From the NCBI GenBank assembly GCA_951406725.2, contig OX597823.1, positions 113,770,001-113,834,000 on the forward strand: a DNA stretch of 64,000 nucleotides. The letters are read 5' to 3'. The DNA comes from Octopus vulgaris (lineage: Eukaryota). Positions 445-62,028 of this stretch are shown piece after piece (the first letter of the stretch is position 1; every line of letters starts with the position of its first letter). The position numbers and the translations under genes were made by a program. The notes under the pieces were generated by a model. It was given only the letters and a program-made list of their open reading frames with translations. It was not told the DNA's origin and did not search any database.

Positions 445-2756
445 GTTTTTACGTATTATTTTTGTATTCATATTCGTGTAACATCGTCCGTTTTTCCGTC
501 CTTGTTTTGTATACATTCGAAGCTTTCTTCCAAGGAATCTAATGCGCTTAGCTTAGTTTTTCCTTGGGGCTGGCCAGATTGGAGCAATCTCAAGATTAAT
601 CATCCGAAATTGCGAGGATGATCCGGTTCTTGACTGAAGAATATCCCGTCCGTGTTTTTTGTATCGTCTTCTAAATGTTTCGCGTTCTTGTCCCAGTTTG
701 TATTTTATATATATATATATATATATAATAATAATAAATATTAGGGAGTAAATCCAAACTTACAGGGAAAAATCAGATTTAGTATTGAATCCAATTTTAT
801 AGTAAAATATTATATTATATTAAATTAGAGATAAAACCACTATTAGGCAAATCATACAATGAAAAACTTAAGCCAATACATAAGATTATTTAATGTATAT
901 TATTTAAATATATAACAAAATTATTAAAAAAATATAATTAATATAACACTACGATCGTATATATATATACATAGATACATTATACATACATATATAGCGG
1001 GCCTATTTCGGTTTTCGTTTACCAAATCTAGTCACAAGGTAATGGTTGACACGGGTGTCTTTATAAGTAAAGAATAATATATATTAATCTATGTCATTAC
1101 TACTTTACTATTCATCGAATGTTTGCATATTCAGATGAAGCTGGAATGTCATTTTACCACATTTTCTCCTATGTATTTCAGCCAGAGGCCGAGGCCACGC
1201 TGGAGCACCGCCTTTACTGCATCCGGGAGTTTTACAGTATTTCTTCTGGTGAAGTAGTGAGTTGGACATTGTTGCTCTTCTTTGTGGCTCCTGCCGCTAT
1301 GTGGGTCCGTCTGGTATTTCAGATGTTTGTATTACAACTAGATGAGCGCTGTAAACTTGGCAAGTGTCCCCTACCTTTGTTTCTACTTGATCAAAACTTC
1401 CCTCTTTTTTAAGATAACCATTGATTAATCTGTCTCATTCTTTCCCTATCTCTCGTCTACTCTCTCTCTCTCTCACTCTCGCAGACACTTTGTTTTTGCT
1501 ATCAATCAAAATCTGCTCTCATGACTTCTCTTCATTTTTTAATGTCACCCTTTTTTGTGTTCCGTAATATCCTTCTGTCCTATCTTTTTATCAATGTTTT
1601 TAATAATCTCTCACTATGTCTTCATGTATGTAACTCTTTGTGGCGTGAATCCTTTGCCCAACCTCTATTCACCTGTTATTCCCTAGAATGCATCACTGTA
1701 ATGCAACTGGTGGTGTCCAACCACCACCAGTTGCACTGCCATTTTCCTTCTTTCCTCTTCTGTTACTCGCACTAATTAGTTCTGTATCATTATTCCAGTT
1801 ATTATAAACCTCATATTTTATTGCTCAGCTCATTGCTGGTTGTCGGCTAACGGTTTCCATCGTAAACGGCCACTTTCCGCTCTACGAATTTATGAAATTC
1901 GCTTCTTTTTAAAACACTTTCTCCCTTTTCTACACCAGAGGCACAGTTTTCTCCTTCAAGCGTAAGAGAAAACGAATGGATTGGAAAATGCGAATCCATC
2001 ATTGCATTTTACGTATTAAAAATTCTAAATATAACGAGAAGCTCAATGACGCTTATGGTCCTAGATTTTGTTTTGCCCCAAAATAAAGTTACTTTTAACA
2101 CTTATTCGTAGGCAAAATAGTGTTGGGATTCAGTCAAGTGAGAGCCACTCCGGTTCTGGTTTCTTTCCTACTTTTAGATAGCAATCGAAATATTTAAATG
2201 AAAAATTGCTTGAATTGTTGAGAAGTTATGTCGATGCTTACAACGGTCACTATAATGTTTGAGATGCTAGAAAAACTGCTGAAGTGCCGGCATCTGCTAA
2301 GAATGAGCACGTTGCTTTTCACAGCTACAATATGTGTGTATCTCTATGATGTATGTGTGGGGGTGATGAGAGAGAGAGAGAGAGAGAGAGGCAGAATGAT
2401 AGAGTAGCATCTTTCTATAAATAGATACACAATGTCTAGAAATAAAGATGGAATATTGGGAACCGAATAAAGATTCACGGAGGGTAAGAAAGAAAGAGAG
2501 AACGAGACGAAGATAAATATGAGTCCGATACGGAGGCAGCAGGAAAGCTTGATTCCGAAAAAGCAGGAAGGAAAGAAAGAAAATGAAAGATTGAAGATTT
2601 CGTGTGTATAAAATTATTGAAGGTATTTTTGAAACTTGACGGTTAGAGCCGTAAAAGCTGTATGTCTTGTCAGTTTTGAAATGCGTATGTATGCAATTAT
2701 GAGATTATGGGAGTATATACGCCATTAAGCCTTACTTTGTATACATTCATATATAA

Positions 2757-2821
<65 letters not shown>

Positions 2822-2919
2822 TAATATTTATATATATATATATATATATATATAGTTATATATATACATATATAATATATATATATATATAGGTACAGGC
2901 AGTTGGACAGACAAACACA

Positions 2920-2956
<37 letters not shown>

Positions 2957-3714
2957 TACACACACACACACACATACACATATATAGTTTCAGATGTTTG
3001 TGCGTGCATGTATTTGACGCATATATGTGTTTTATGCCTACACACCTCACTCGTATATAACAAGTTCTGAAACATTTCTTTACAAAAAGATGAAGAATTA
3101 TATTCTAAATTTGATGCTTAATTCCTTTCCTTCTTCTAACTTTCCTCTCCTTCACCCCCCCCCCCTTCTGTCTATTCATCATTCCTTTTCATTCCTCTCT
3201 TCTCTCTTCCACTTCTCGTTTCTTATTCTTCTCGTAATATTCTCACTATTATTGCTTTCTGCACCATTTTTTTTATGTATTTCACTATCTTTCACTTTTC
3301 TGAGATGCGTTGGATGTATTATTTATTTCTTTTTTATTTTATTTACAAGATGTAAGCTTCATTAAAATTTTAGACCCATTTCAACGGGAAAACAATATAT
3401 TTTATCGAAGCAATGCCAAAAAGACTTTAGAAGAAATTTTCAGATATGGCTTTTATTTTGCATGTAAGATGTGGATAAAAAAAAAAGAACGTAAATTAAT
3501 GCATATTACATTGTATATTTGTCAATAGCAAATGAAAATAAATCCTTGAAGTGAAAGCAAAAGTGATACAAAAATGTAACATAGAAAATAGTGTATGAAT
3601 GAATATTTTAAAAGATTCTTTCAGCAGTCTGTTTTCCTTTGTGCTAAAATAATGAAGATTGCAGCGGAATGCAGAATACATATAAAGAGTAATTCACACG
3701 ACAAACCTTTTTCC

Positions 3715-4132
3715 AAGAACACCAACACCGCTACCACAAATACCAACAACAACAAAAAACCATCATCACCAATAATCACCAGCATCACTACGCCTACAAA
3801 CAGCAACACAGCAACCACCAGCAACAACGACAAGAACAATATTACCACGCCTCACCACACCACTAAAACCACCACGTATAAAACAACTACTACAACAACT
3901 ACTATTATATTAACAGCACAACTACCACCTCTATTGGCACCGACAACAAAAAACAACAGCTTCAATAAGGTCACCAATATTACTATATTTGTTAACAGCA
4001 CCACCAACGACACAGTTGCAACCTCGGTTGTCAAGACCAGGAATAACATCAACAGAAACTCCACCAACAACAAGCAGAAACACCACCAGAAATAACATAA
4101 TACCACCGTAACTACCCCGGCCACTACTACTA
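3715..4132 (+). repeat. Degenerate CAA/CAC/TAC low-complexity tract
   Basis: Read directly from the sequence. Explains the Thr/Asn-rich ORF. Confidence 0.8.
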
Positions 4133-48890: not shown

Positions 48891-49620
48891 AGATTAATTG
48901 CATCATTAATATAGTTTTAGAGATTATATTTAAAGCAAGTGAATGGCGATGGATGTTCCAGTAGCTGTCCTGGTGAATAGAAGGATTTGGTATAGTAATT
49001 GGAATGATATTTCTTTACAGCGAATCTTCAAAATTCCTCTTTACGCTTCTTTGGTATTTTTCTTTGAAGCTACCTTAAAACTATAAGCTCAGAGCTCTAC
49101 CTCTTACAGAACAGATTTAACTATATTCATTCACTAGTTATTTGAAACCTAAATTTAGTTTCGAATGAGATATAAATAGTACATGTAAAAATAATTTTGT
49201 AATTACGCGGGAAGAAAGAATTAGGTTCAGAGTTCGGTGAGTTTAGCTCCATTGCGTTTAGGGATTGTTTGTAATTATCGTGCAATTGTCCGAATTTATA
49301 GCTAGGCATCAATTGTCCCCTTCCACTTCTTCCGTGTATGTAACATAAATACATCTTCAGTTTCGTTTCTATTTCACGATTTAGCCCTGTTTTATCTTTC
49401 AGTTTTATAGCTACAACGTTCGTTGAATATCGATTTAGGTTGCTGTAGTTAAGATTATGCTGGAATCTACCAGTTTTAGAATTCTTTGGGCTCTCTTTTC
49501 TTACAATGCATTCACTGTAATGCCATAAGAATATATATGTATATATATATGTATATATGCAGACACACACACACACACACATATATACATATAATAATAA
49601 TAATAATGATAATAATAATG

Positions 49621-49717
<97 letters not shown>

Positions 49718-49718
<1 letters not shown>

Positions 49719-52700
49719 GAAAAAACGAAAAAACGAAGAGAGGATTGAAAGAGTTAGTATAAGTGATAGGCAAAGTGAAATACGCCCTGAACCAATCATA
49801 AACACTAAGACAGATGAGCATCAAATAGATAAAGAAAGTCATACAAATATTGACCCAACAGAACTACATGAGCTAAAAAATCAAATCATGATTGAATGGC
49901 TGAAAATTAAAGAAACCAGCATGGATGAGCGTGATACACTTCCTAAAATCCGCAACTCTAACCAAAACATGAAAATAATTGGTAAAATCCGGCTTGCACT
50001 TAAGGATATAATTTCAGTTAATGATGTTGATATCACAAACCTCAACCACCTATACTATGCATCCGCGAAAATCTCAACGATCCTATGTGGTGTAAAGATT
50101 AGAAAACGGCAACAGTCCCACAAAAAGCCTTCTTGGCAAGAGCGTCTGCAACAACAAATTAAAATATTTAGATCTGACATTGAATATTTGAAAAACCTTA
50201 AGGCTCACAAGATTACCAAACCTACAAAAACCCAAAAATTACTGAAAAAATACAATATGAAAACTATACTTGATATTGATGCCACCATAGAAACCATCAA
50301 ACAAAAGGTATCTGCCAAAGCTGCCCGCATAGCGAGGTATGAAAAGCGTGTTAGATTTTTCAAGGACAACAACATGTTCAAAAATAACACCAAGAATTTT
50401 TACAGGAAGATAGGAAAAACAGCGTTTACTGCAGGGTCTGTACCATCAAAAGAAGAAGTGCAGAGATTTTGGAATAAAATCTGGGCAGAAGAAAAAACAC
50501 ACAACGAAAAGGCCCCCTGGATTGACAGAATATCTACAGAACTGGACCCCTTAGAAGAGCAAAAGTGGGAGGGTGTCAAGGTAGAAGATATAAGATCTGC
50601 TCTCAGGAGGTCAAGCAAATGGAAGTCTCCAGGAAAGGATAAAATTCCTAACTTCTGGCTGAATGCCTTCCCAGAGAGCCATGAACTGCTAACAGAACTG
50701 TACAATGATGTTTTGCAACACCCTAGTAGGATGCCTCCTTGGCTAGTTAATGGGTTAACATTCCTGCTTCCAAAAAGTGAAGAAACAAATGAACCAAAAA
50801 ACTATAGACCCATAACCTGCTTAACAACTATGTACAAAACACTAACATCTGTCCTGACGGAATATACCTATAGTTTTTTAACAGACAGCAGCATATTCCC
50901 TAATGAACAGAAAGGATGTAAACGTGGATCCTACGGCTGTAAAGACCAACTACTCATCAATAATATGATCTTAGAAGATTGTCACAAACGACACAAAAAC
51001 TTATCAATAGCCTGGATAGACTATAAAAAGGCTTTTGATAGCCTACCACATAGCTGGATTAGGAAATGCCTTGAAATGTATAAGATAGCACCAACTCTGC
51101 GAAACTTCTTGACTGTAAGTATGAGATCATGGAGAACCACACTAACTCTGAACAGTGACAGTGAATCCCTAAATGCTGGTGATGTAAAAATTTCGTGTGG
51201 CATTTTCCAGGGTGACTCACTGTCACCACTCCTCTTTTGTTTATCCTTAATACCTCTCTCAAAGCTGCTCAATGACGCGCAGTACGGGTATAAAATGTTT
51301 GATAAAAATATAAATCATCTCGTTTACATGGATGATTTAAAGCTTTTTGCAAAAAATGATCAACAACTCAAGGGCTTACTAGCGATAGTCAAACAATTCA
51401 GTGACGACATCAGAATGCAATTCGGCCTCGATAAATGTGCAAAGGCTACCTTTATCAAAGGAAAAATGACAGAAACATCTAACGTTAACCTTGACCAACA
51501 GAATGTCATAAAAGAACTAGACCCAGCGGAGAGCTACAAGTACCTAGGGATAATTGAAGGGAACGGAATAAGGCATTCAGAGATGAAGGAAAGGATCAGG
51601 AGAGAATGCTATCGAAGAGTGAGAGCAATACTCAAGACAGAGCTGAATGCAAGAAACAGGATCGAAGCAATCAATGCATTAGCTATACCAGTCGTGACTT
51701 ACAGTTTCAATATTGTTAACTGGTCAATTACTGAAATATGTCAGCTCGACAGAAAAATAAGGAAACTGTTGACAATGCATAGAATGCACCACCCTAAGGC
51801 AGATACAGAACGACTCTATCTGCCAAGAAAAGAGGGAGGCCGTGGTCTTTTGCAACTGGCAATAACAATGAAGATTGCTACAATTGGCCTAGACACCTAC
51901 CTGAAAAACTCTGAGGACTGGATGCTAAAACTTGTCTCAAAACATGAAAACAAGAAAGCATCATACTCAGTCACAAAACAGGCAAAGGAATATCTAAGTG
52001 AATTCCGAATACAACCAATTTCGGAATTAGAGATAGATATACAAGAAACAAGCACAGAAAAAGCTAGGCGCATGAAAACCCGTGCCAAAACTGCGGCCTT
52101 AGATATTCTGAATAATAAATGGCAAGAAAAACCTCTCTATGGCAAATACCCAAAGAGAGCGAATAATGCAGATATCGACAAAGCCCTGACCCATCAATGG
52201 CTAATGGCCTCTGGCTTAAAATCTGAAACAGAGGGGTTTATCATAGCAGCTCAAGATCAATGCCTACCAACAAGAAACTACCAGGCCAACATATTAAAGA
52301 TCAGAAGCAGTCCAACGTGTCGTGTATGCAAGCAACAAAATGAAACCATTGACCATGTGGTCTCCAAGTGCAGTCTTCTAGCGCCTACAGAGTATCTCAA
52401 CAGGCACGATAGAGCTGCACAATATATTCACTGGGTAATCTGTAAAAACCTGGATTTGCCCCATGAAAAAAACTGGTGGGAACACAAACCACCCCCAGTG
52501 CTTGAAAATGACCACATCTCACTCCTCTGGAACTTCACCATTCAAACTGACAGGAAGATAGATGCAAATAGGCCAGACATCATATTGAAAAACTTCAAAC
52601 AAAGAACATGCCTCCTCATTGATATGACTGTCCCAATCGATATAAACGTATCTGTCAAGACCTACCAAAAACTGAGCAAATATAAAGATCTTGAAATAGA

Positions 52701-53107
52701 AATCAGCAAAATGTGGAAGCTGAAGACTAAAACAATACCTGTTGTCATAGGTGCCCTGGGAATGATAGCAAAAGGGGCTGATAGCTACCTAACTCAGATA
52801 CCAGGAAACCCAAAAATGGCAGAAGTTCAAAAGATAGTGCTCATGGGAACTGCTCATATCCTACGCAAAATACTCTCTATGTAATCTCAAGGTTTAAAAC
52901 AAACATAATTTTCGGTTTAAAAAAAAAAAAAAAAAAAAAAAACCTTTTTTTTTTTTTAGACATTCATTAGTACAACATCCCCACCCCCCAAATATATGGC
53001 ACACTAGGCATAACAACAACATGAACTTCCAACCCTGTTGTCTCTTGAGGTCTCTGGGTGAGACTTGGAGCCAACTTCTACAAATATAAAGCAAAAGTCA
53101 AACATAG
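49718..53107 (+). mobile_element. R4/Dong-like RLE non-LTR retrotransposon, copy A (5'-truncated), inserted in (TAA)n
   Basis: Flanked by (TAA)n at about 49590-49717 and 53108-53218. Uninterrupted RT-RLE ORF to 52884, then a 3' UTR of about 220 bp. (TAA)n targeting is the known behaviour of Dong elements. Confidence 0.9.
49888..52884 (+). CDS. Reverse transcriptase + CCHC finger + restriction-like endonuclease of Dong-like copy A
   Basis: RT motifs KSPGKD, NYRPITCL, WIDYKKAFDSLPH, GIFQGDSLSP, YMDDLKL, YKYLG. CCHC finger CRVC...HVVSKC. RLE motifs RHD, NRPDII, LIDMTVP, KLSKY. The first internal ATG is 49888. The track's extension to 49486 is translated microsatellite, and the native N-terminus is missing. 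Confidence 0.9.
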   Translation: MIEWLKIKETSMDERDTLPKIRNSNQNMKIIGKIRLALKDIISVNDVDITNLNHLYYASAKISTILCGVKIRKRQQSHKKPSWQERLQQQIKIFRSDIEYLKNLKAHKITKPTKTQKLLKKYNMKTILDIDATIETIKQKVSAKAARIARYEKRVRFFKDNNMFKNNTKNFYRKIGKTAFTAGSVPSKEEVQRFWNKIWAEEKTHNEKAPWIDRISTELDPLEEQKWEGVKVEDIRSALRRSSKWKSPGKDKIPNFWLNAFPESHELLTELYNDVLQHPSRMPPWLVNGLTFLLPKSEETNEPKNYRPITCLTTMYKTLTSVLTEYTYSFLTDSSIFPNEQKGCKRGSYGCKDQLLINNMILEDCHKRHKNLSIAWIDYKKAFDSLPHSWIRKCLEMYKIAPTLRNFLTVSMRSWRTTLTLNSDSESLNAGDVKISCGIFQGDSLSPLLFCLSLIPLSKLLNDAQYGYKMFDKNINHLVYMDDLKLFAKNDQQLKGLLAIVKQFSDDIRMQFGLDKCAKATFIKGKMTETSNVNLDQQNVIKELDPAESYKYLGIIEGNGIRHSEMKERIRRECYRRVRAILKTELNARNRIEAINALAIPVVTYSFNIVNWSITEICQLDRKIRKLLTMHRMHHPKADTERLYLPRKEGGRGLLQLAITMKIATIGLDTYLKNSEDWMLKLVSKHENKKASYSVTKQAKEYLSEFRIQPISELEIDIQETSTEKARRMKTRAKTAALDILNNKWQEKPLYGKYPKRANNADIDKALTHQWLMASGLKSETEGFIIAAQDQCLPTRNYQANILKIRSSPTCRVCKQQNETIDHVVSKCSLLAPTEYLNRHDRAAQYIHWVICKNLDLPHEKNWWEHKPPPVLENDHISLLWNFTIQTDRKIDANRPDIILKNFKQRTCLLIDMTVPIDINVSVKTYQKLSKYKDLEIEISKMWKLKTKTIPVVIGALGMIAKGADSYLTQIPGNPKMAEVQKIVLMGTAHILRKILSM

Positions 53108-53205: not shown

Positions 53206-53416
53206 CAATAATAATAATCGAGAAGAGTATAAAGAAGTAATATACGCTTATTGCTATGCATTAGGTAGGCCATCTCAAGAGAGACACACCGCAAACTCTT
53301 ACAGTATATGGAGAACACGGAATCAAGACAGTAGGCCCTATTTGGACGAGAACAAATTAGCAAATGTGAGGAGAGATATCCTTAGAAATAACAGACTCAC
53401 AGACAGTGAAATAAGC

Positions 53417-55088
53417 GCTTGGGACGAGTATACGCTGGAACATTGTCAGATAGAAGTCGTGGGATTGAAATTATGAAACAGGCCGAGGCTGGGTTATCAG
53501 CGATTGATGTTTCGAAGTTACCAGGTAAATATAAAATTTGGTGCTTGCAGTTCGGCCTGTACCCGCGACTTGCGTGGCCACTTTTAATATACGAAGTAGC
53601 ATTGTCACGAGTTGAAAAGATCGAACAAAAATGTAATGTGTTCATTAGAAAGTGGCTAGGTCTACCTCGTATGTTGAACAGCTCAGCTCTTTATCGTAAA
53701 AGAGGTTCGTTGCAGTTACCAATAGCATCAATAGTCGAAATATATAAGTTGGGGAAGATACGGACGGTCATGATGCTGAGAGAATCGAAGGATATGGAAA
53801 TCAGGCGTAACCCACCAGAGGTGAAAACAGCCAGGAAGTGGAAAGCAGAAGCAGAAACTGACAACATCTTGTCTTCTCTTACACACAGAGATATGGTGGG
53901 AGCAACGCAGAACCATCGGAAAGGATTTGGTTTTGGCGCGGATCAGTTCAGACCGTTTGCAAGCATGATGCCGTTTGAACGCAGATCTGTTGTTAGCAAC
54001 AGCGTCAAAACAAGAGAAGCAGAGAGAAGAGAGCTTCATTTGATCCGATGTGTTCATCAAGGTCAGATGACGAGATGGGAAGAACATGTTGTTGAGAGGA
54101 AGATAAGTTGGGATGAGATGTGGAAGTGGACAACATCTCGGCTGAGTTTCCTGATTCGTTCATCTTATGATGTTTTGCCATCACCTACGAATCTAGTAAG
54201 ATGGAACGTCTTAGAGAATGACGTCTGCAAATGTGGAAAAGTCGGTACACTAAAACATATTCTTTCCAACTGTTCGTTAGCATTGAACAGGTACACATGG
54301 AGGCACAACTTGGTCCTTAAGGTTATCTTCAATGCTATAAAGAATCAAATTCATCTCAACAACACTGAGGAAAAATCGTTAAAAGTACCATCAAGAGAGT
54401 TCATTACCTTCGTGCGACCAGGTCAGCAGATCCGTTTCAAGAAGAAGACCAAGAAACTTCCTGAGAAAAATGAAAAGTGGAACGACTATTGGGAGGTAAC
54501 TGCAGATTTACCTGGGTGCCAGGTTTTCTTTCCCATCCCAGTTTCGAAAAAACCAGATATTTTGATGTGGTGTGAAAGAAAGAAAGTTTTAAATATAGTC
54601 GAGCTAACGGTTCCTCACGAAGATAATATGGACGCCGCTCGAGCTCGAAAATTAAACCGTTATGAAAACCTCCTCGAGGAATATGAAGACGCAGGCTGGA
54701 AAGCGGAACATTTTCCTATCGAAGTCGGATGTAGAGGGTTTGTAGGACACAGCGTGAGACGACTGTTGTTATCGTTAGGCCTAACTCATCGTAAAGTCAA
54801 TACCACCATGACTGATATCCAATCTACAGTGGAGAAGGCTAGCCACTGGATTTGGTTAAAAAGAGACGATGAGCGATGGCTAGAAGTATATTGAGTTCAT
54901 CATAACCAGCTGATCTAGCAAGCGGGGCCTCATATCAGTGAGGGGGCCGGTGCGCATTGATGCCGTCGAGAGGTAGGCCCCGAAACGGCGCGCATTCTCT
55001 CCTGATGACCCCATACACTTGCTAGCTTCCGATATACGGAGCTTTTAACTGGTAGCACTTGCATGTGCAAGTTGTTTGCAAGATATCT
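53417..55088 (+). mobile_element. HERO-like element copy 1, 5'-truncated, head-to-tail with copy 2
   Basis: Matches 57154-58826 at offset 3737/3738. I saw only two differences: G/T at 53462 vs 57199 (Gly/Val) and G5 vs G6 in the 3' UTR. It encodes the C-terminal 491 aa (53419-54894). Confidence 0.9.
54904..55072 (+). ncRNA. Structured 3' UTR of the HERO-like element with hammerhead-core motifs (second copy about 58641-58810)
   Basis: GCCGTC (54962-67) pairs with GAAACGGC (54982-89). GAGAG (54968-72) pairs with CTCTC (54997-55001), which is followed by CTGATGA (55002-08). GGGGCCT pairs with AGGCCCC, and CTAGCAAG with CTTGCTAG. Catalytic activity is not shown. Confidence 0.45.
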
Positions 55089-55116
55089 AAGACCTTGTGG
55101 TAGGTAACCACTGACA

Positions 55117-55212
55117 AACCGGAAAGACGGTTAGGCATCTTGGAAAGACAAGAGGACTGCTCGGAAAGACCAGCGGACAATAGGAAAGACTATCGACACC
55201 AGGAAAGACTGG
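55117..55212 (+). other. Array of five stem-loops with invariant GAAAGA loop in the HERO-like 5' leader
   Basis: AACCG-GAAAGA-CGGTT, TCTTG-GAAAGA-CAAGA, CTGCTCG-GAAAGA-CCAGCGG, ATAG-GAAAGA-CTAT and CCAG-GAAAGA-CTGG, read directly from the sequence. Confidence 0.85.
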
Positions 55213-58200
55213 CGGAGGCTACGGACTTACGATCCTCGCCTCTGTATTCTATTGTAACAGACATAACAGGAAAAGACAGCCCCATGATTGACCGAGAGGG
55301 GGGAGTCGAGAATCAATCAAACCCAGTCAGCACGGAAACGACCTTTGAAACGAACATGATTATTCATTCGAACAGCGGACGAAATGCAAACAACTTTGGA
55401 TGCAAGCTGTGCTATAGAACCTTTGCAACTGAGAGAGGCTTGAAGATACATCAGGGAAAGACTTGTGAGAAGAGGACAGAGCAGTGTGGATCGTCAGATC
55501 GTAAAACACGTGGCAAATCATCCCCGGACTCAAACCACAGCGGATCGATAAATGCTACAGCACAGAACTCTTCACGTGAAGAAACTACAAGTCATGACAC
55601 TGGTGCATCGGATAATACTCAGAGGAAACCGAGGGTTTTGTGGCCTGCTGCTAATGAGAAAGTAAAATATAAAGAGTTTGAAAACAAGGTTTGTCGGACT
55701 CTTTATAAAATGACAGGCTCTACAGTGGAAAAACTGGGAAAATTATCAAGCTCAATATACGATGTAGCAAGAGATTTATTTGGAATAAAAGAGAATATAC
55801 GACTAGAGAAAGGAAAGTGTGGACCAAGCAGGAGGATCAGAAAAATGCAGCAGTTGAGGAAGGAAAAGTCCGACTTAAGAAAGAGATGGAGATGTGCTGC
55901 ACTAGATGAGAAACCTGGCCTTGTGTTGCTGTATAACGATTTGAAGAGGAAATGTCGTTATGTGCAACGACATATTCGCCGATATGAGCGTCGAAAAGAA
56001 AGTAAAAGGACTCGAGGGCAGTTTGTGAAGGACCCGTACGGGTTTACTAAGAAGCTGTTCACTGAGCCGAAGAGTGGTACTTTATCATGCACTAAAGAAG
56101 AATTGGATGCTCATATCAAGGAAACCTACAGCGATCCGCACCGTAATCAGCCGCTGCCATCTCTACATGGGCTAAATCATCTCTCAGGACCTGATATCGA
56201 ATTCCAGATTGGGGACATCAGGGAGAGAGAGGTGAATGACTTCGTAAGAAAAGCTAGAGCGAAGAGTGCCCCAGGAGGTGATGGCGTCTCATATAAAGTT
56301 TACAAATACTGCAATCGTCTGCGAAAGAAGCTCTTCGTCCTAATCCGACAACTGTGGCGCGAGGAGACTATAGTAGAGGATTGGTGTAAGGCAGAAGGTA
56401 TATACCTGCCGAAAGAGGCCAATGCAAAGACCATAAAACAGTTTAGGCCGATATCCTTATTGAATGTGGAAGGCAAGATCTTTATGGGAATTCTGTCGAG
56501 GAGAACAGTGACATATTTACAGAGTAACGGATATGTTGATGAATCTGTTCAAAAGGCCGGAATCCCCGGGATCCCTGGATGCGTTGAACACTGTTTTTCG
56601 ATTTGGAAAGCGATTCAGGATGCCAAACAGAACAAGAAAAGTCTGAACGTGGTATGGCTCGACCTAGCTAACGCGTATGGTTCAGTGCCACACAAATTAC
56701 TAATAACAGCCATGGACCACTTCCACATTCCTGACAAAGTGATCAAAATAATGAGGATGTACTATGAAAGTTTCGAAATGAGGTTTACAACTGGAAGTTT
56801 TACAACAAATTGGCACCGATTGGAGGTTGGCATTGCTGCTGGCTGTACAATATCTGTCACGTGGTTTATCTTAGTCATGGAGTTGATTTTGAAAGGTGTA
56901 GATTTTTCGGAACAAATCGCCCATGTACAATCGCCTAAGAAAGCCTTCATGGATGACGTGACACTTCTAGCTACAGATAAACAAATCATGCAGAATGCCC
57001 TTTTGAGATTAGACGAACGTGTACGGTGGTCAAGGATGCGATTTAGAGCAAAAAAGTCGCGTAGTCTGACATTTGTTAAGGGAGTGCAGAAAGAATTTAA
57101 ATTTCGAATATCGGAAGAAAGCATTCCAACAGTCAAGGAAGAGCCCGTCAAGAGCTTGGGACGAGTATACGCTGGAACATTGTCAGATAGAAGTCGTGTG
57201 ATTGAAATTATGAAACAGGCCGAGGCTGGGTTATCAGCGATTGATGTTTCGAAGTTACCAGGTAAATATAAAATTTGGTGCTTGCAGTTCGGCCTGTACC
57301 CGCGACTTGCGTGGCCACTTTTAATATACGAAGTAGCATTGTCACGAGTTGAAAAGATCGAACAAAAATGTAATGTGTTCATTAGAAAGTGGCTAGGTCT
57401 ACCTCGTATGTTGAACAGCTCAGCTCTTTATCGTAAAAGAGGTTCGTTGCAGTTACCAATAGCATCAATAGTCGAAATATATAAGTTGGGGAAGATACGG
57501 ACGGTCATGATGCTGAGAGAATCGAAGGATATGGAAATCAGGCGTAACCCACCAGAGGTGAAAACAGCCAGGAAGTGGAAAGCAGAAGCAGAAACTGACA
57601 ACATCTTGTCTTCTCTTACACACAGAGATATGGTGGGAGCAACGCAGAACCATCGGAAAGGATTTGGTTTTGGCGCGGATCAGTTCAGACCGTTTGCAAG
57701 CATGATGCCGTTTGAACGCAGATCTGTTGTTAGCAACAGCGTCAAAACAAGAGAAGCAGAGAGAAGAGAGCTTCATTTGATCCGATGTGTTCATCAAGGT
57801 CAGATGACGAGATGGGAAGAACATGTTGTTGAGAGGAAGATAAGTTGGGATGAGATGTGGAAGTGGACAACATCTCGGCTGAGTTTCCTGATTCGTTCAT
57901 CTTATGATGTTTTGCCATCACCTACGAATCTAGTAAGATGGAACGTCTTAGAGAATGACGTCTGCAAATGTGGAAAAGTCGGTACACTAAAACATATTCT
58001 TTCCAACTGTTCGTTAGCATTGAACAGGTACACATGGAGGCACAACTTGGTCCTTAAGGTTATCTTCAATGCTATAAAGAATCAAATTCATCTCAACAAC
58101 ACTGAGGAAAAATCGTTAAAAGTACCATCAAGAGAGTTCATTACCTTCGTGCGACCAGGTCAGCAGATCCGTTTCAAGAAGAAGACCAAGAAACTTCCTG

Positions 58201-58631
58201 AGAAAAATGAAAAGTGGAACGACTATTGGGAGGTAACTGCAGATTTACCTGGGTGCCAGGTTTTCTTTCCCATCCCAGTTTCGAAAAAACCAGATATTTT
58301 GATGTGGTGTGAAAGAAAGAAAGTTTTAAATATAGTCGAGCTAACGGTTCCTCACGAAGATAATATGGACGCCGCTCGAGCTCGAAAATTAAACCGTTAT
58401 GAAAACCTCCTCGAGGAATATGAAGACGCAGGCTGGAAAGCGGAACATTTTCCTATCGAAGTCGGATGTAGAGGGTTTGTAGGACACAGCGTGAGACGAC
58501 TGTTGTTATCGTTAGGCCTAACTCATCGTAAAGTCAATACCACCATGACTGATATCCAATCTACAGTGGAGAAGGCTAGCCACTGGATTTGGTTAAAAAG
58601 AGACGATGAGCGATGGCTAGAAGTATATTGA
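55140..58631 (+). CDS. Zn-finger/RT/CCHC/RLE protein of the HERO-like element (1163 aa from TTG; first ATG 55284)
   Basis: CKLCYRTFATERGLKIHQGKTC zinc finger. RT motifs SAPGGDGV, FRPISLLNVEGKIF, WLDLANAYGSVPH, AFMDDVT. CKC...HILSNC. RLE motifs WRHN, KPDIL, VELTVP, ARKLNRY, PIEVGCRG. No stops. Confidence 0.9.
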   Translation: MERQEDCSERPADNRKDYRHQERLAEATDLRSSPLYSIVTDITGKDSPMIDREGGVENQSNPVSTETTFETNMIIHSNSGRNANNFGCKLCYRTFATERGLKIHQGKTCEKRTEQCGSSDRKTRGKSSPDSNHSGSINATAQNSSREETTSHDTGASDNTQRKPRVLWPAANEKVKYKEFENKVCRTLYKMTGSTVEKLGKLSSSIYDVARDLFGIKENIRLEKGKCGPSRRIRKMQQLRKEKSDLRKRWRCAALDEKPGLVLLYNDLKRKCRYVQRHIRRYERRKESKRTRGQFVKDPYGFTKKLFTEPKSGTLSCTKEELDAHIKETYSDPHRNQPLPSLHGLNHLSGPDIEFQIGDIREREVNDFVRKARAKSAPGGDGVSYKVYKYCNRLRKKLFVLIRQLWREETIVEDWCKAEGIYLPKEANAKTIKQFRPISLLNVEGKIFMGILSRRTVTYLQSNGYVDESVQKAGIPGIPGCVEHCFSIWKAIQDAKQNKKSLNVVWLDLANAYGSVPHKLLITAMDHFHIPDKVIKIMRMYYESFEMRFTTGSFTTNWHRLEVGIAAGCTISVTWFILVMELILKGVDFSEQIAHVQSPKKAFMDDVTLLATDKQIMQNALLRLDERVRWSRMRFRAKKSRSLTFVKGVQKEFKFRISEESIPTVKEEPVKSLGRVYAGTLSDRSRVIEIMKQAEAGLSAIDVSKLPGKYKIWCLQFGLYPRLAWPLLIYEVALSRVEKIEQKCNVFIRKWLGLPRMLNSSALYRKRGSLQLPIASIVEIYKLGKIRTVMMLRESKDMEIRRNPPEVKTARKWKAEAETDNILSSLTHRDMVGATQNHRKGFGFGADQFRPFASMMPFERRSVVSNSVKTREAERRELHLIRCVHQGQMTRWEEHVVERKISWDEMWKWTTSRLSFLIRSSYDVLPSPTNLVRWNVLENDVCKCGKVGTLKHILSNCSLALNRYTWRHNLVLKVIFNAIKNQIHLNNTEEKSLKVPSREFITFVRPGQQIRFKKKTKKLPEKNEKWNDYWEVTADLPGCQVFFPIPVSKKPDILMWCERKKVLNIVELTVPHEDNMDAARARKLNRYENLLEEYEDAGWKAEHFPIEVGCRGFVGHSVRRLLLSLGLTHRKVNTTMTDIQSTVEKASHWIWLKRDDERWLEVY

Positions 58632-58829
58632 GTTCATCATAACCAGCTGATCTAGCAAGCGGGGCCTCATATCAGTGAGGGGGGCCGGTGCGCATTGATG
58701 CCGTCGAGAGGTAGGCCCCGAAACGGCGCGCATTCTCTCCTGATGACCCCATACACTTGCTAGCTTCCGATATACGGAGCTTTTAACTGGTAGCACTTGC
58801 ATGTGCAAGTTGTTTGCAAGATATCTAAG

Positions 58830-61800
58830 ACACAAAGGAAATGAAGAATCAGATGAACAGTATAGCCCGCCACGAGGCTTAATTGAAAGACTGCCATCTG
58901 ACCAAAGTACGCAAAGGCTTGAAGATACAAGAAATTCTATTGTGCCTGTTAAGGATAGCCAGGAAAACGAAAAAACAACAGTAACTGAAGATCTCGCATT
59001 TGCTGAAGAACACAGAGAGTCTATGGCAGAAATGAGGCAGAAAATCCTGAATACGCTTGAAGTCGTAAGACATACAAGTATGAATGATAGAGAACCACTT
59101 CATAAACTCTCAAATACAAACCAAAATAAAAAACAAATCCAAATTGGCAACTATGTAACAAATGAAATAATACGAGAATTAAAACCTGATTTTACTGAGT
59201 TAAATGAAATTATTTACGCTTCTGCTAGGGCAATTGAAACCAGCTGTATGCCCCCGAAAAAACAAAGAAAACAAAACCTGGGAAGAAATCAAACCTGGAG
59301 AAGTAAAATTGAAAAAGAGATTGAATTTATGAGAGGGGAAATATCAATATTAAATGAACTAATATGTGGAAATGATGTAAGATCCAGAACAGGAAGAAAG
59401 ATGACGAGAAAATTTGGATCCTCACCAAGAGAAGAACTGATATCAATAAAAGAAACGCTGAAACAAAAAGTCCAAGCAAAAGCCCAAAGAATACGAAGAT
59501 TTGAGAAGAGAAACAAGTTTTACAAGCAAAATAAGCTGTTCACATCCAATGCCAAAAAATTCTACAGAGAAATAGGGAAGGAGAAAGTAACCGTTAAAGA
59601 CCCCCCTCCCAAGGAAGAAGTTAAAAACTTTTGGAAAAGGATTTGGAGTGACAAGAAGACGTACAACATAAATGCAGACTGGATTATACAAACTGAAGGA
59701 TCCTACCAAAATTTACAACAACAAGCATGGGAAGACATCACAATAGCAGACCTAAGAAAGGCACTCACAAAGGCCCATAATTGGAAATCCCCCGGTAAAG
59801 ATAAGGTGCCGAATTTCTGGCTCGCATCGCTCCCATGTGCACACGGTAAGCTAGTTCAGCTGCTCAATGGAATTATGAGAGACCCAAAGAAAACACCTGA
59901 ATGGTTAGCAAGTGGCATTACTTACCTACTCCCAAAGAATAACGAAACCAACCTTCCAAAAAACTATCGGCCTATAACCTGTCTATCCACCACGTATAAA
60001 ATCCTAACATCTATCCTGGCGGAGAAAACATATGCATTCATGGAGAAGAACGATATTTTCCCCATTGAACAAAAAGGGTGCCGCCGAGGCTCTTACGGAA
60101 GCAAAGATCAACTGCTAATCAATCGTATGATCCTTGAGAACTGTCACAACAAGCGCAGAAATATCAGCACCGCATGGATTGACTATAAAAAGGCCTTCGA
60201 CAGTATACTGCATCCATGGATCTTGAGATCGCTGGACATCTTCAAAATTTCCCCTGTGATTTCAAACTTCCTGAAGCACAATATGTCGTTGTGGAATACG
60301 AATCTCCAATTATACCACTCTAATGGAGTACTTGCCTCAGAAAATATAAACATCAACTGTGGAATTTTTCAAGGTGACTCACTTTCACCTTTAATATTCT
60401 GCATAGCCCTAATACCCCTTACAAGTGAATTAAACAGAACAGGGTATGGGTATAAAATTGCCAATAAAAAAATAAGCCATCTATTTTATATGGATGACTT
60501 AAAACTTTATGGTAAAGACAATAATGAACTCGAAGGGCTATTGCGCACCGTGAAAGCATTCAGCGATGACATCGGGATGGAGTTTGGACTTGAGAAGTGT
60601 GCCAAGGCCACTTTCCAGAAAGGGAAAGTGAAGAAAATTCAGTCGTGTTAGATGTTGACACAGTCATAAGAGAGCTTGAGCAAGAACAAACATACAAATA
60701 TTTAGGGATAAATGAAGGCTCTGTTATTCAGCATGCAAGCATGAAAGAGAAAATCAGGAATGAATGTTATAGGAGAGTTCGTGCAGTCCTGAAATCTGAA
60801 CTAAATGCACGTAACAAGGTGTTAGCTATAAATTCCTTAGCAGTTCCAGTTGTTACTTATAGCTACAATGTGTTGAACTGGAATATGAGTGAAGTAAAGA
60901 ATATGGATACGCAAGCTGCTGAGTTGTAATAGGATGCACCACCCAAAGGCAGACGTAGATCGCCTTTACCTTCCCAGAGCCCAAGGAGGTCGAGGCCTGA
61001 TCCAATTTGAACTAGCTTACAAAACAACCACAATTGGACTGGCCAAATATCTCGAAATATCGAATGACTGGATGCTGAAGCTCGTGGAAAATCACGAGAG
61101 ACGAAAGAAGATTCATTCTATCATAAAGGAAAGCAAAAAATTTGCTATTGATCTCGTGCAGGATACCCAAACTGAACAACCCGAGGGAAGTACGGCAACT
61201 ATTGTTGCAAAGAAGGTGAAAATGATGGCAATGAAAAAAGCGCACGAGCAATTGGCTGATAGGTGGGAGGAGAAACCTCTGCACGGCAAATATGTGACCC
61301 GCAGCAAACAAGCTGATGTTGACCAGAAGCAAACCCATCAGTGGCTACGGAGCTCAGGGATAAAAGCAGAGAGCGAAGGTTTCATCCTGGCTGCTCAAGA
61401 TCAAAGCCTATTAACCCGGAACTACCAGGCCAATGTGATGAAAAATGGAGCAGACCCAAAATGCCGATTCTGCAACGACATGATTGAAACAGTGGACCAC
61501 CTAATCTCTGGATGTAAAGTCTTAGCACCAGTGGAGTATAAATTAAGACATGACAGAGTTGGCCAATATCTCCACTGGCTAATAAGTCGGCATTACAATA
61601 TCAAAACTGCCGACAAGTGGTATAATCACCACCCTGAGGCTGTAACTGAAGGAGAAAATGTAACCATTCTGTGGGACTTTCCAGTACATACAGACCGAAC
61701 CATCAAGGCCAATAAACCAGATATTGTTGTGAAAGACCAAAACAATAAAGTTTGCTTATTGATCGACATTATCATCCCCTGTGATCATAATATCTCAGCG

Positions 61801-62028
61801 AAAGAGTTTGACAAGCTCAGAAAATATAAAGACCTACTCATTGAAATTGAGAAAATGTGGCATCTCAAGGCGGTTACAATACCAGTGATCGTAGGAGCAC
61901 TAGGAATGATCAAGAAGGGAACCGAAAATTATATGAGAATGATTCCTGGCTTACCATCCCTGCAAGAAGTGCAAAAGATTGTCTTAACTGGTACATCACA
62001 CGTATTGAGAAGAGCATTGTCGATGTGA
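58830..62028 (+). pseudogene. Frameshifted RT-RLE ORF of Dong-like copy B
   Basis: Three consecutive ORF pieces (58801-60651, 60597-60929, 60934-62028) are collinear with copy A. Motifs include GIFQGDSLSP, FYMDDLKL, CRFC...HLISGC, RHD and NKPDIV. Frameshifts lie near 60620-60650 and 60905-60930. Confidence 0.88.

Follow-up and report, generated by a model that had tools for sequence, protein, structure and literature searches.

The 64,000-nt stretch of Octopus vulgaris DNA analysed here (the window; contig OX597823.1, positions 113,770,001 to 113,834,000) contains a HERO-like retrotransposon lacking long terminal repeats (non-LTR), inserted in an R4/Dong-like long interspersed nuclear element (LINE). 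The word TAAGAC stands at a head-to-tail junction inside the insertion and again at its 3′ end, and the question is what this word does there. An initial annotation took it either for a motif preferred by the endonuclease of the element or for a target to which the RNA 3′ end anneals. As worded, that finding is half wrong, yet what it points to is the signature of priming in an unusual route of copying. The word TAAGAC belongs to the sequence at which the element itself is joined head to tail, and it is almost certainly not a target motif. Our reading, to which we give a probability of about 0.65, is that a unit RNA cut by a ribozyme, and likely circularised, would be copied from an internal, microhomology-primed start past one lap. 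Both labels come from the initial annotation: HERO is assigned by the layout of the open reading frame (ORF), not by a tree, and R4/Dong-like is kept as a working label. The features of the insertion are as follows (positions of the window).

53219..53418, + strand, left piece of the host R4/Dong-like LINE, 5′-truncated, after an AAT microsatellite; 97-98% identity to other host copies over 200 bp.
53417..53418, + strand, GC, a 2-bp 5′ microhomology of host and element, from the host-copy comparison and the element context.
53417..55087, + strand, upstream 3′ fragment, unit positions 2067-3738; with the host C excluded, it differs from the downstream unit by 1 substitution and 1 indel.
55088..55093, + strand, TAAGAC, element sequence within the head-to-tail junction; the junction recurs in all 16 copies that match the 5′-end 24-mer exactly, 13 with exact TAAGACCTTGT and 3 with substitutions.
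55088..58825, + strand, one full unit, 3738 bp, of the HERO-like non-LTR retrotransposon with a restriction-like endonuclease (RLE).
58822..58825, + strand, TATC, last element-only bases and putative zone of internal reverse-transcription start.
58826..58831, + strand, TAAGAC, 6-bp 3′ microhomology, present in the empty target (27/29 host copies) and in the element junction.
58826..62028, + strand, right piece of the host R4/Dong-like LINE, with frames 58747-60651 and 60898-62028.

The letters described by the initial annotation were all found: TAAGAC at 55088-55093 and 58826-58831, preceded by GATATC at each 3′ joint, and the left flank GAAATAAG-C. Its empty site was not. The insertion site is spanned by 28 of 29 uninterrupted host LINE copies, and all 28 read SEI-SAIKHATENDINI-RHK, 39 bp longer than the proposed join; extra sequence between SEI and RHK is what the annotation itself had named as speaking against its reconstruction. 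The proposed join does give the open frame LTDSEI-RHKGNEE, which has no weight as evidence, about one third of the tried joins being open (30 printed among 90). The join worked because ATAAG occurs at two host positions with a spacing of 39 bp. The two TAAG words occupy different host positions and are no 4-bp duplication, and the supposed extra C is host sequence in the uninterrupted copies, the host LINE continuing to 53418. Compared with these copies, 32 bp of the target were deleted between 53418 and 58826 and nothing was duplicated, as the annotation had allowed in its caveat of a target deletion. TAAGAC lies immediately to the right of the deletion in 27 of 29 other host copies. The empty site thus contains TAAGAC in a new sense, and the word at 58826-58831, common to target and element, is a real 6-bp 3′ microhomology. 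The 5.4-kb insertion consists of a 1671-bp 3′ fragment (53417-55087) followed by the 3738-bp unit (55088-58825), and its 3′ end matches the element junction sequence over 10 nt despite containing the full unit.

The 3′ ends of other copies were surveyed in the 2.8-Gb genome, which has 1031 exact matches to the 3′-end 23-mer of the element. TAAGAC was absent from all 29 dispersed 3′ ends among the first 30 copies on C1, an unbiased sample. Over the whole genome, an A/T filter left 42 ends with a match through TAAG, of which 19 were head-to-tail junctions and 23 dispersed (hand count); TAAGAC followed by non-element DNA occurred in 4 of the 23, whereas a comparable filter gave ~749 3′ ends in total. 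The word is found at about 4 of 730 dispersed copies, or ~0.5%. Matches to (C/T)ATCTAAGAC, the sequence of the junction, were graded. For the 100 flanks listed, a hand tally gave match lengths of 0 (1 flank), 1 (1), 2 (10), 3 (43), 4 (15), 5 (4), 6 (11), 7 (6), 8 (4) and 9 nt (1), plus 4 junctions. Positions 3 to 6 of the match were kept in 84/94, 41/84, 26/41 and 22/26 flanks, each far above chance, and positions 7-8 exceeded chance weakly in the same flanks. A match of at least 6 nt was present in 5/15 long and 5/22 short copies. TAAGAC as the fixed terminus of the element was rejected, the 3′ ends being ragged, and TAAGAC as a target motif was rejected by the flank survey and the graded match lengths. 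The 3′ junctions also lack a fixed target sequence such as those of R2, R4/Dong, NeSL and Utopia.

Where the target is visible (about nine cases, those based on paralogues being rough), the element-only bases stop 0-6 nt past GCAAGA and the remainder is common to the target. The shared stretch is 6 nt in the window, 4-5 at L110, 4 at L261, 3 at L276, 1-2 at L006, 1 at L017 and L278, and 0 at L015 and L059. The TAAG of L261 lies within a 25-bp target-site duplication (TSD) and the AGA of L276 within a 36-bp TSD. TSDs are rare: an exact scan of 99 insertions gave 5 non-simple cases, to which L276 is added. For L259, no empty paralogue was recovered, the only match being the locus itself. We infer that copying starts inside the RNA at a ragged position, where microhomology to the RNA bases downstream is optional, and an internal start assisted by microhomology is probable. 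Of the proposal that the RNA 3′ end anneals to the target, homology priming stands; the bases that pair are likely not the RNA 3′ terminus but those after an internal start site, which also form the head-to-tail junction. A sizeable minority of insertions lies in (TA)n microsatellites (e.g. L022, L024, L033, L053 and L132). In the T-subfamily the start zone is ATAT, which these repeats match; either pairing or a bias of the nuclease could account for this.

The arrangement of full-length copies was examined with the exact 5′-end 24-mer, a query blind to upstream sequence. All 16 copies found were preceded by the element's own 3′ end, joined by the junction sequence. Of 20 fetched candidates 19 were tandems, the exception being L126; with the window, the upstream fragments measure 25-1975 bp. 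Two full units in tandem were found neither among the 19 fetched tandem loci nor in the window. A protein search gave 32 further loci, known tandems left out; among these near-full copies, 30 5′ ends lie at scattered points between unit positions 35 and 545, and 3 extend across the junction. A defined 5′ end against host DNA was seen in 0/16 exact-5′-end copies and 0/33 further 5′ ends. The layout is a partial tandem with a pseudo-LTR, like that of Penelope. Each fragment resembles its own downstream unit: they agree at 38 of 63 shared minor alleles, the permutation mean being 0.11 and none of 5000 permutations as high. The fragment of L118 has 2 differences in 973 positions to its own unit and at least 11 to others, and private alleles are common to fragment and own unit in 5/18 loci, namely those with long overlaps other than L124. 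Apart from C>T/G>A-type changes, no lineage of 'upstream' alleles was found. This pattern is the trace expected of one template copied more than once round.

Several tandems (L116, L119, L121, L123, L125 and L112) have large internal deletions, with unit ~270-1210 joined to 3110-3440; they could be shorter non-autonomous circles or skips of the reverse transcriptase (RT). The upstream fragments of two independent loci, L113 and L119 (also L064 and L073), share their first base, unit 3714 or window 58801. This base falls within the loop of a CACTTGC/GCAAGT hairpin, a possible RT pause. L130 (G000:C11:84627800-84637700) is complex: a near-full copy is fused to an inverted piece of 1.76 kb, and another 5′ piece is present as well.

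A hammerhead-like fold is predicted in the 3′ untranslated region (UTR) and occurs twice in the insertion.

54915..55025, + strand, hammerhead-like fold, copy 1; predicted cut 54967^54968.
58652..58763, + strand, hammerhead-like fold, copy 2; predicted cut 58705^58706, at GUC^G, 3738 nt past the first.
58699-58705, + strand, copy 2, stem III strand and site.
58706-58711, + strand, copy 2, stem I strand.
58714-58728, + strand, copy 2, GAAA block.
58734-58746, + strand, copy 2, CUGAUGA block.
58652-58664 and about 58679-58686, + strand, copy 2, partners of the split stem II.

The core has the rare order site, GAAA, CUGAnGA (S-G-C), with a split stem II. A scan demanding 4 bp in stem I and in stem III found it in 32/46 3′ UTR windows and in 0/46 reverse complements; the 46 come from the window, a second family and metagenome relatives (~32-60% protein identity), and some rows are duplicates. 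Stems I and III are kept while their sequence varies, which was matched in 0/46 controls. The site was left unforced in the scan, and all 28 distinct cores have U-H and A15.1, and 27/28 have C before GAAA. The cleavage-site dinucleotides are UA in 12, UC in 10, UU in 6 and UG in none. Over whole loci, 38 matches lay outside ORFs, 1 in 208 kb of ORF and 0 in 345 kb of reverse complement. The conserved 3′ UTR fold is predicted to be a self-cutting RNA.

The genome also carries a trace at the predicted cut. By hand tally, the 5′ ends of truncated copies fall exactly at the cut in 10 cases, against ~11 over the 15 positions upstream and 17 over the next 26 positions downstream (Poisson 2e-9); the downstream tally covers 100 of 115 rows, with ambiguous and internally deleted rows left out. 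Of 19 fetched loci starting at or near the cut, 15 align from unit position 3619 exactly, and a separate listing gave a 16th. A T stands before the cut in 14 of these 16 (P ~1e-4). The RT of R2 runs off the end of its RNA and adds A, and the T excess may reflect the same behaviour at a real RNA end. A structure pause at this base is unlikely because the partner strands would already have been copied by then. The ribozyme very probably cuts in vivo.

In the textbook account, a non-LTR element copies a linear RNA, beginning at the 3′ end. The route that we propose is different. Full-length copies consist of a 3′ fragment and one unit, so that two folds lie one unit apart if the fragment exceeds ~175 bp. 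A read-through transcript would be cut at both folds to give a 3738-nt RNA, of which the 5′-end pile-up would be the trace, and its ends would be ligated by the ribozyme itself or by a host enzyme. The protein would nick DNA without a fixed target. Synthesis of cDNA would begin at GA(C/U)A-UCUA, which lies ~115-120 nt downstream of the cut, and 0-6 nt of the UCUAAGAC that comes next in the RNA would be paired to the target. Most copies stop early; a few would continue unpaused through the 5′ UTR and the junction, so that some of the 3′ end is copied a second time. If the RNA were not ligated, run-off at the cut would yield an insertion of 116-126 bp. The 5′ joint is resolved mostly without duplication, and here with the 32-bp deletion. 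A cut linear unit would yield only ~120 nt of cDNA from the start site, so copying in full needs RNA that stays uncut, a circle closed by ligation or a jump that is clean. At their 3′ ends, long copies match the junction as often as short ones do, which requires junction sequence after a complete unit. In a linear parent, host DNA would stand at that place, barring a rare long match or a second unit, which was not found.

The choice lies mainly between these templates. An uncut read-through transcript from a partial-tandem master, copied linearly from an internal start as in Penelope-like elements (PLEs), with the ribozyme cutting occasionally or later and no circle, is possible but unlikely. 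The cut is crossed without an indel in all 106 copies counted (some perhaps counted twice), as such a route predicts, and the locus with the 1975-bp fragment could have been the master for shorter ones. On such a route fragments could only shrink and should form a lineage of their own, yet they agree with their own unit across subfamilies. No 5′-end pile-up is seen at any transcription start, the loci examined hold no two-unit arrays, and the long copies match the junction exactly where a linear parent has host DNA. The PLE PAc of Anolis is a precedent for this route (Frangieh et al. 2024, PMC11167929).

If the cut linear RNA were instead held end to end, and the RT jumped from its 5′ end to its own 3′ end at the cut, no covalent circle would be required. 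This would account equally well for the pile-up, the allele concordance and the junction match, and the RT of R2 is known for template jumping. Such jumps usually add or lose bases, however, and the 106 clean crossings make this route less likely still. A nuclease that prefers (T/A)AAGAC, so that the element inserts before its own 5′ end, as the initial annotation had suggested, is very improbable. TAAGAC is indeed present in the empty site here and enriched over chance among dispersed ends. These ends carry it in only ~0.5% of cases, though, and match lengths are graded; a full-length copy that lacks an upstream fragment and could serve as target was not found, the fragments hold private alleles of their own unit, and the junctions are identical, not ragged.

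Several points weigh against ribozyme cutting followed by circular, microhomology-primed copying. The clean crossing of the cut by most copies fits an uncut precursor as well as a ligated circle. Contigs from 3/4 runs join 58831 to 55094; that these runs are RNA is a guess, DNA holds the junction as well, and such contigs fit circle and read-through alike. A direct stem II of at least 3 pairs between the G and C blocks is present in 0/28 cores, and with a split stem II activity is not transferable from the assayed type-SGC ribozymes. The stem IIb partner is just 4-7 bp and seldom exceeds shuffled controls individually. No core was matched in 14/46 UTRs, Rfam gave no match up to E 10 across 54800-55500, and minimum-energy folding missed the pseudoknotted core (z -1.76). 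Microhomology is only 0-2 nt at L015, L059, L017, L006 and L278, so pairing is not obligatory. Alleles of fragment and unit are discordant in 25/63 cases, mostly by C>T/G>A and likely through later decay, and local gene conversion could contribute to the similarity within loci. The main caution comes from the PLE PAc: its dominant substrate in vitro was the RNA in uncut form, insertion by mutants of the ribozyme was normal, and the internal start had no homology to the cut DNA (PMC11167929).

The coding region and the hairpins in front of it are as follows.

55104..58631, + strand, single ORF, 1175 aa stop to stop, with an N-terminal Cys/His finger, RT, C-terminal CCHC knuckle and PD-(D/E)xK-like nuclease.
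55117..55212, + strand, five hairpins with GAAAGA loops, the third with a bulged stem; likely RNA recognition elements.

Pfam gave RVT_1 only (E 5.7e-19), and the PDB sequence matches have the R2 protein as the best, with R2 and L1 on top. The protein belongs to the R2 group. The finger, knuckle and RLE motifs were read by eye, and with this reading the layout is that of HERO: one ORF with RT, CCHC knuckle and C-terminal RLE. A named HERO element was not among the 120 homologues listed. AAGAC was confirmed in the five hairpin loops, at 55124, 55145, 55166, 55186 and 55205. One option in the initial annotation was a DNA target carried by the element. A hairpin with a G(A/G)(A/T)AG(A/T) loop recurs upstream of the ORF in 16/36 relatives and in 0/36 reverse complements, which points to an RNA element and not a DNA target.

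The element works most like PLEs and retrozymes and is a member of neither. With PLEs such as PAc it has in common the partial tandem with a truncated 3′ copy in front, the hammerhead within the repeated part and the internal reverse-transcription start (PMC11167929; Craig et al. 2021, PMC8557442). PLEs differ in their GIY-YIG nuclease, telomerase-like RT and canonical hammerheads (same sources); neither of these two proteins was seen in the ORF by Pfam or PDB matching, and here an R2-group RT is joined to a C-terminal RLE. The start in PAc has no homology to the cut DNA, and at its ribozyme site no reads ended (PMC11167929), whereas the octopus element has graded microhomology and a genomic 5′-end pile-up at the predicted cut. 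Non-LTR retrozymes also have hammerhead-bounded units, a proposed circular RNA and rolling-circle copying; they are small and non-autonomous, with type I hammerheads, and PLE-linked (PMC7229834, 10.64898/2026.07.22.740005). The element here is autonomous and 3.7 kb long, and its 1175-aa open frame sets it apart from non-coding retrozymes. The fold resembles the type-SGC hammerhead HRIMA-1 (Eckert et al. 2023, PMC10085705) in the order site-GAAA-CUGAnGA with all core letters, in covarying stems I and III and in two pseudoknots. Unlike in HRIMA-1, both stem II strands pair with an upstream strand carrying an inserted hairpin. The main text of PMC10085705 names no retrotransposon host; the supplements could name one. 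R2 is similar in protein architecture and in target deletion on insertion, and pairing of its RNA or cDNA with the target aids priming (PMC13580325, PMC7650587). R2 differs in its fixed target, its 5′ ribozyme of hepatitis delta virus (HDV) type and its linear template with a defined 5′ end.

The single ORF with RT and RLE is like that of the HERO clade, many families of which are not target-specific (PMC4640811). Our literature search, which did not extend to subscription journals, Repbase Reports and supplements, gave no description of a ribozyme, circle or internal priming in HERO elements. Zebulon of Tetraodon, of the HERO clade, is said to have been reported in tandem arrangement by Bouneau and colleagues in 2003. 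We consider it somewhat better than an even chance that HERO-like LINEs are autonomous rolling-circle retrotransposons, in which a non-circularly permuted hammerhead with split stem II would cut and close a unit-length circle, and an R2-type RT would start inside it, the bases after the start guiding it to nicked DNA. If so, LINE, Penelope and retrozyme biology would be linked by a widespread RLE lineage that primes internally on a circle made by a ribozyme. The non-circularly permuted hammerhead would have a natural eukaryotic role, an R2-like writer would accept circular templates, and the consensus boundaries of such families would be circularly permuted. What looks like a 'target motif' at such an end can be an artefact, TAAGAC being a case in point. 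The copying model places the predicted cut, the start zone and the pairing bases to the nucleotide and is thereby directly testable.

The same layout, with different junction sequences, was found in a second family of this genome (~46% protein identity; L163 and L165) and in the metagenome relatives L183, L205 and L212-L214; the 1680-bp fragment of L213 has 99.94% identity to its unit. Terminal repeats inside the ORF on the short metagenome contigs L182, L197, L204, L208 and L220 may be assembly wrap-arounds and were given no weight. The repeats of L160 and L164 were discarded as unrelated microsatellite-type or unresolved sequence. One metagenome contig, L206, has two HERO-like elements (~71% alike) in tandem, each with a ribozyme-like fold. 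At L277 (G000:C9:42489500-42495500, reverse strand, ~2932-3910) seven head-to-tail copies with a period of 140 bp are 98% alike. They derive from the 3′ UTR of an old (~80%) element copy with a decayed ribozyme core and are likely a local amplification after insertion. In the window itself, a second, different R4/Dong-like LINE lies upstream at 49480-52884, after an AAT microsatellite; it has a 1134-aa stop-to-stop frame and is in places ~71% alike to the interrupted host LINE.

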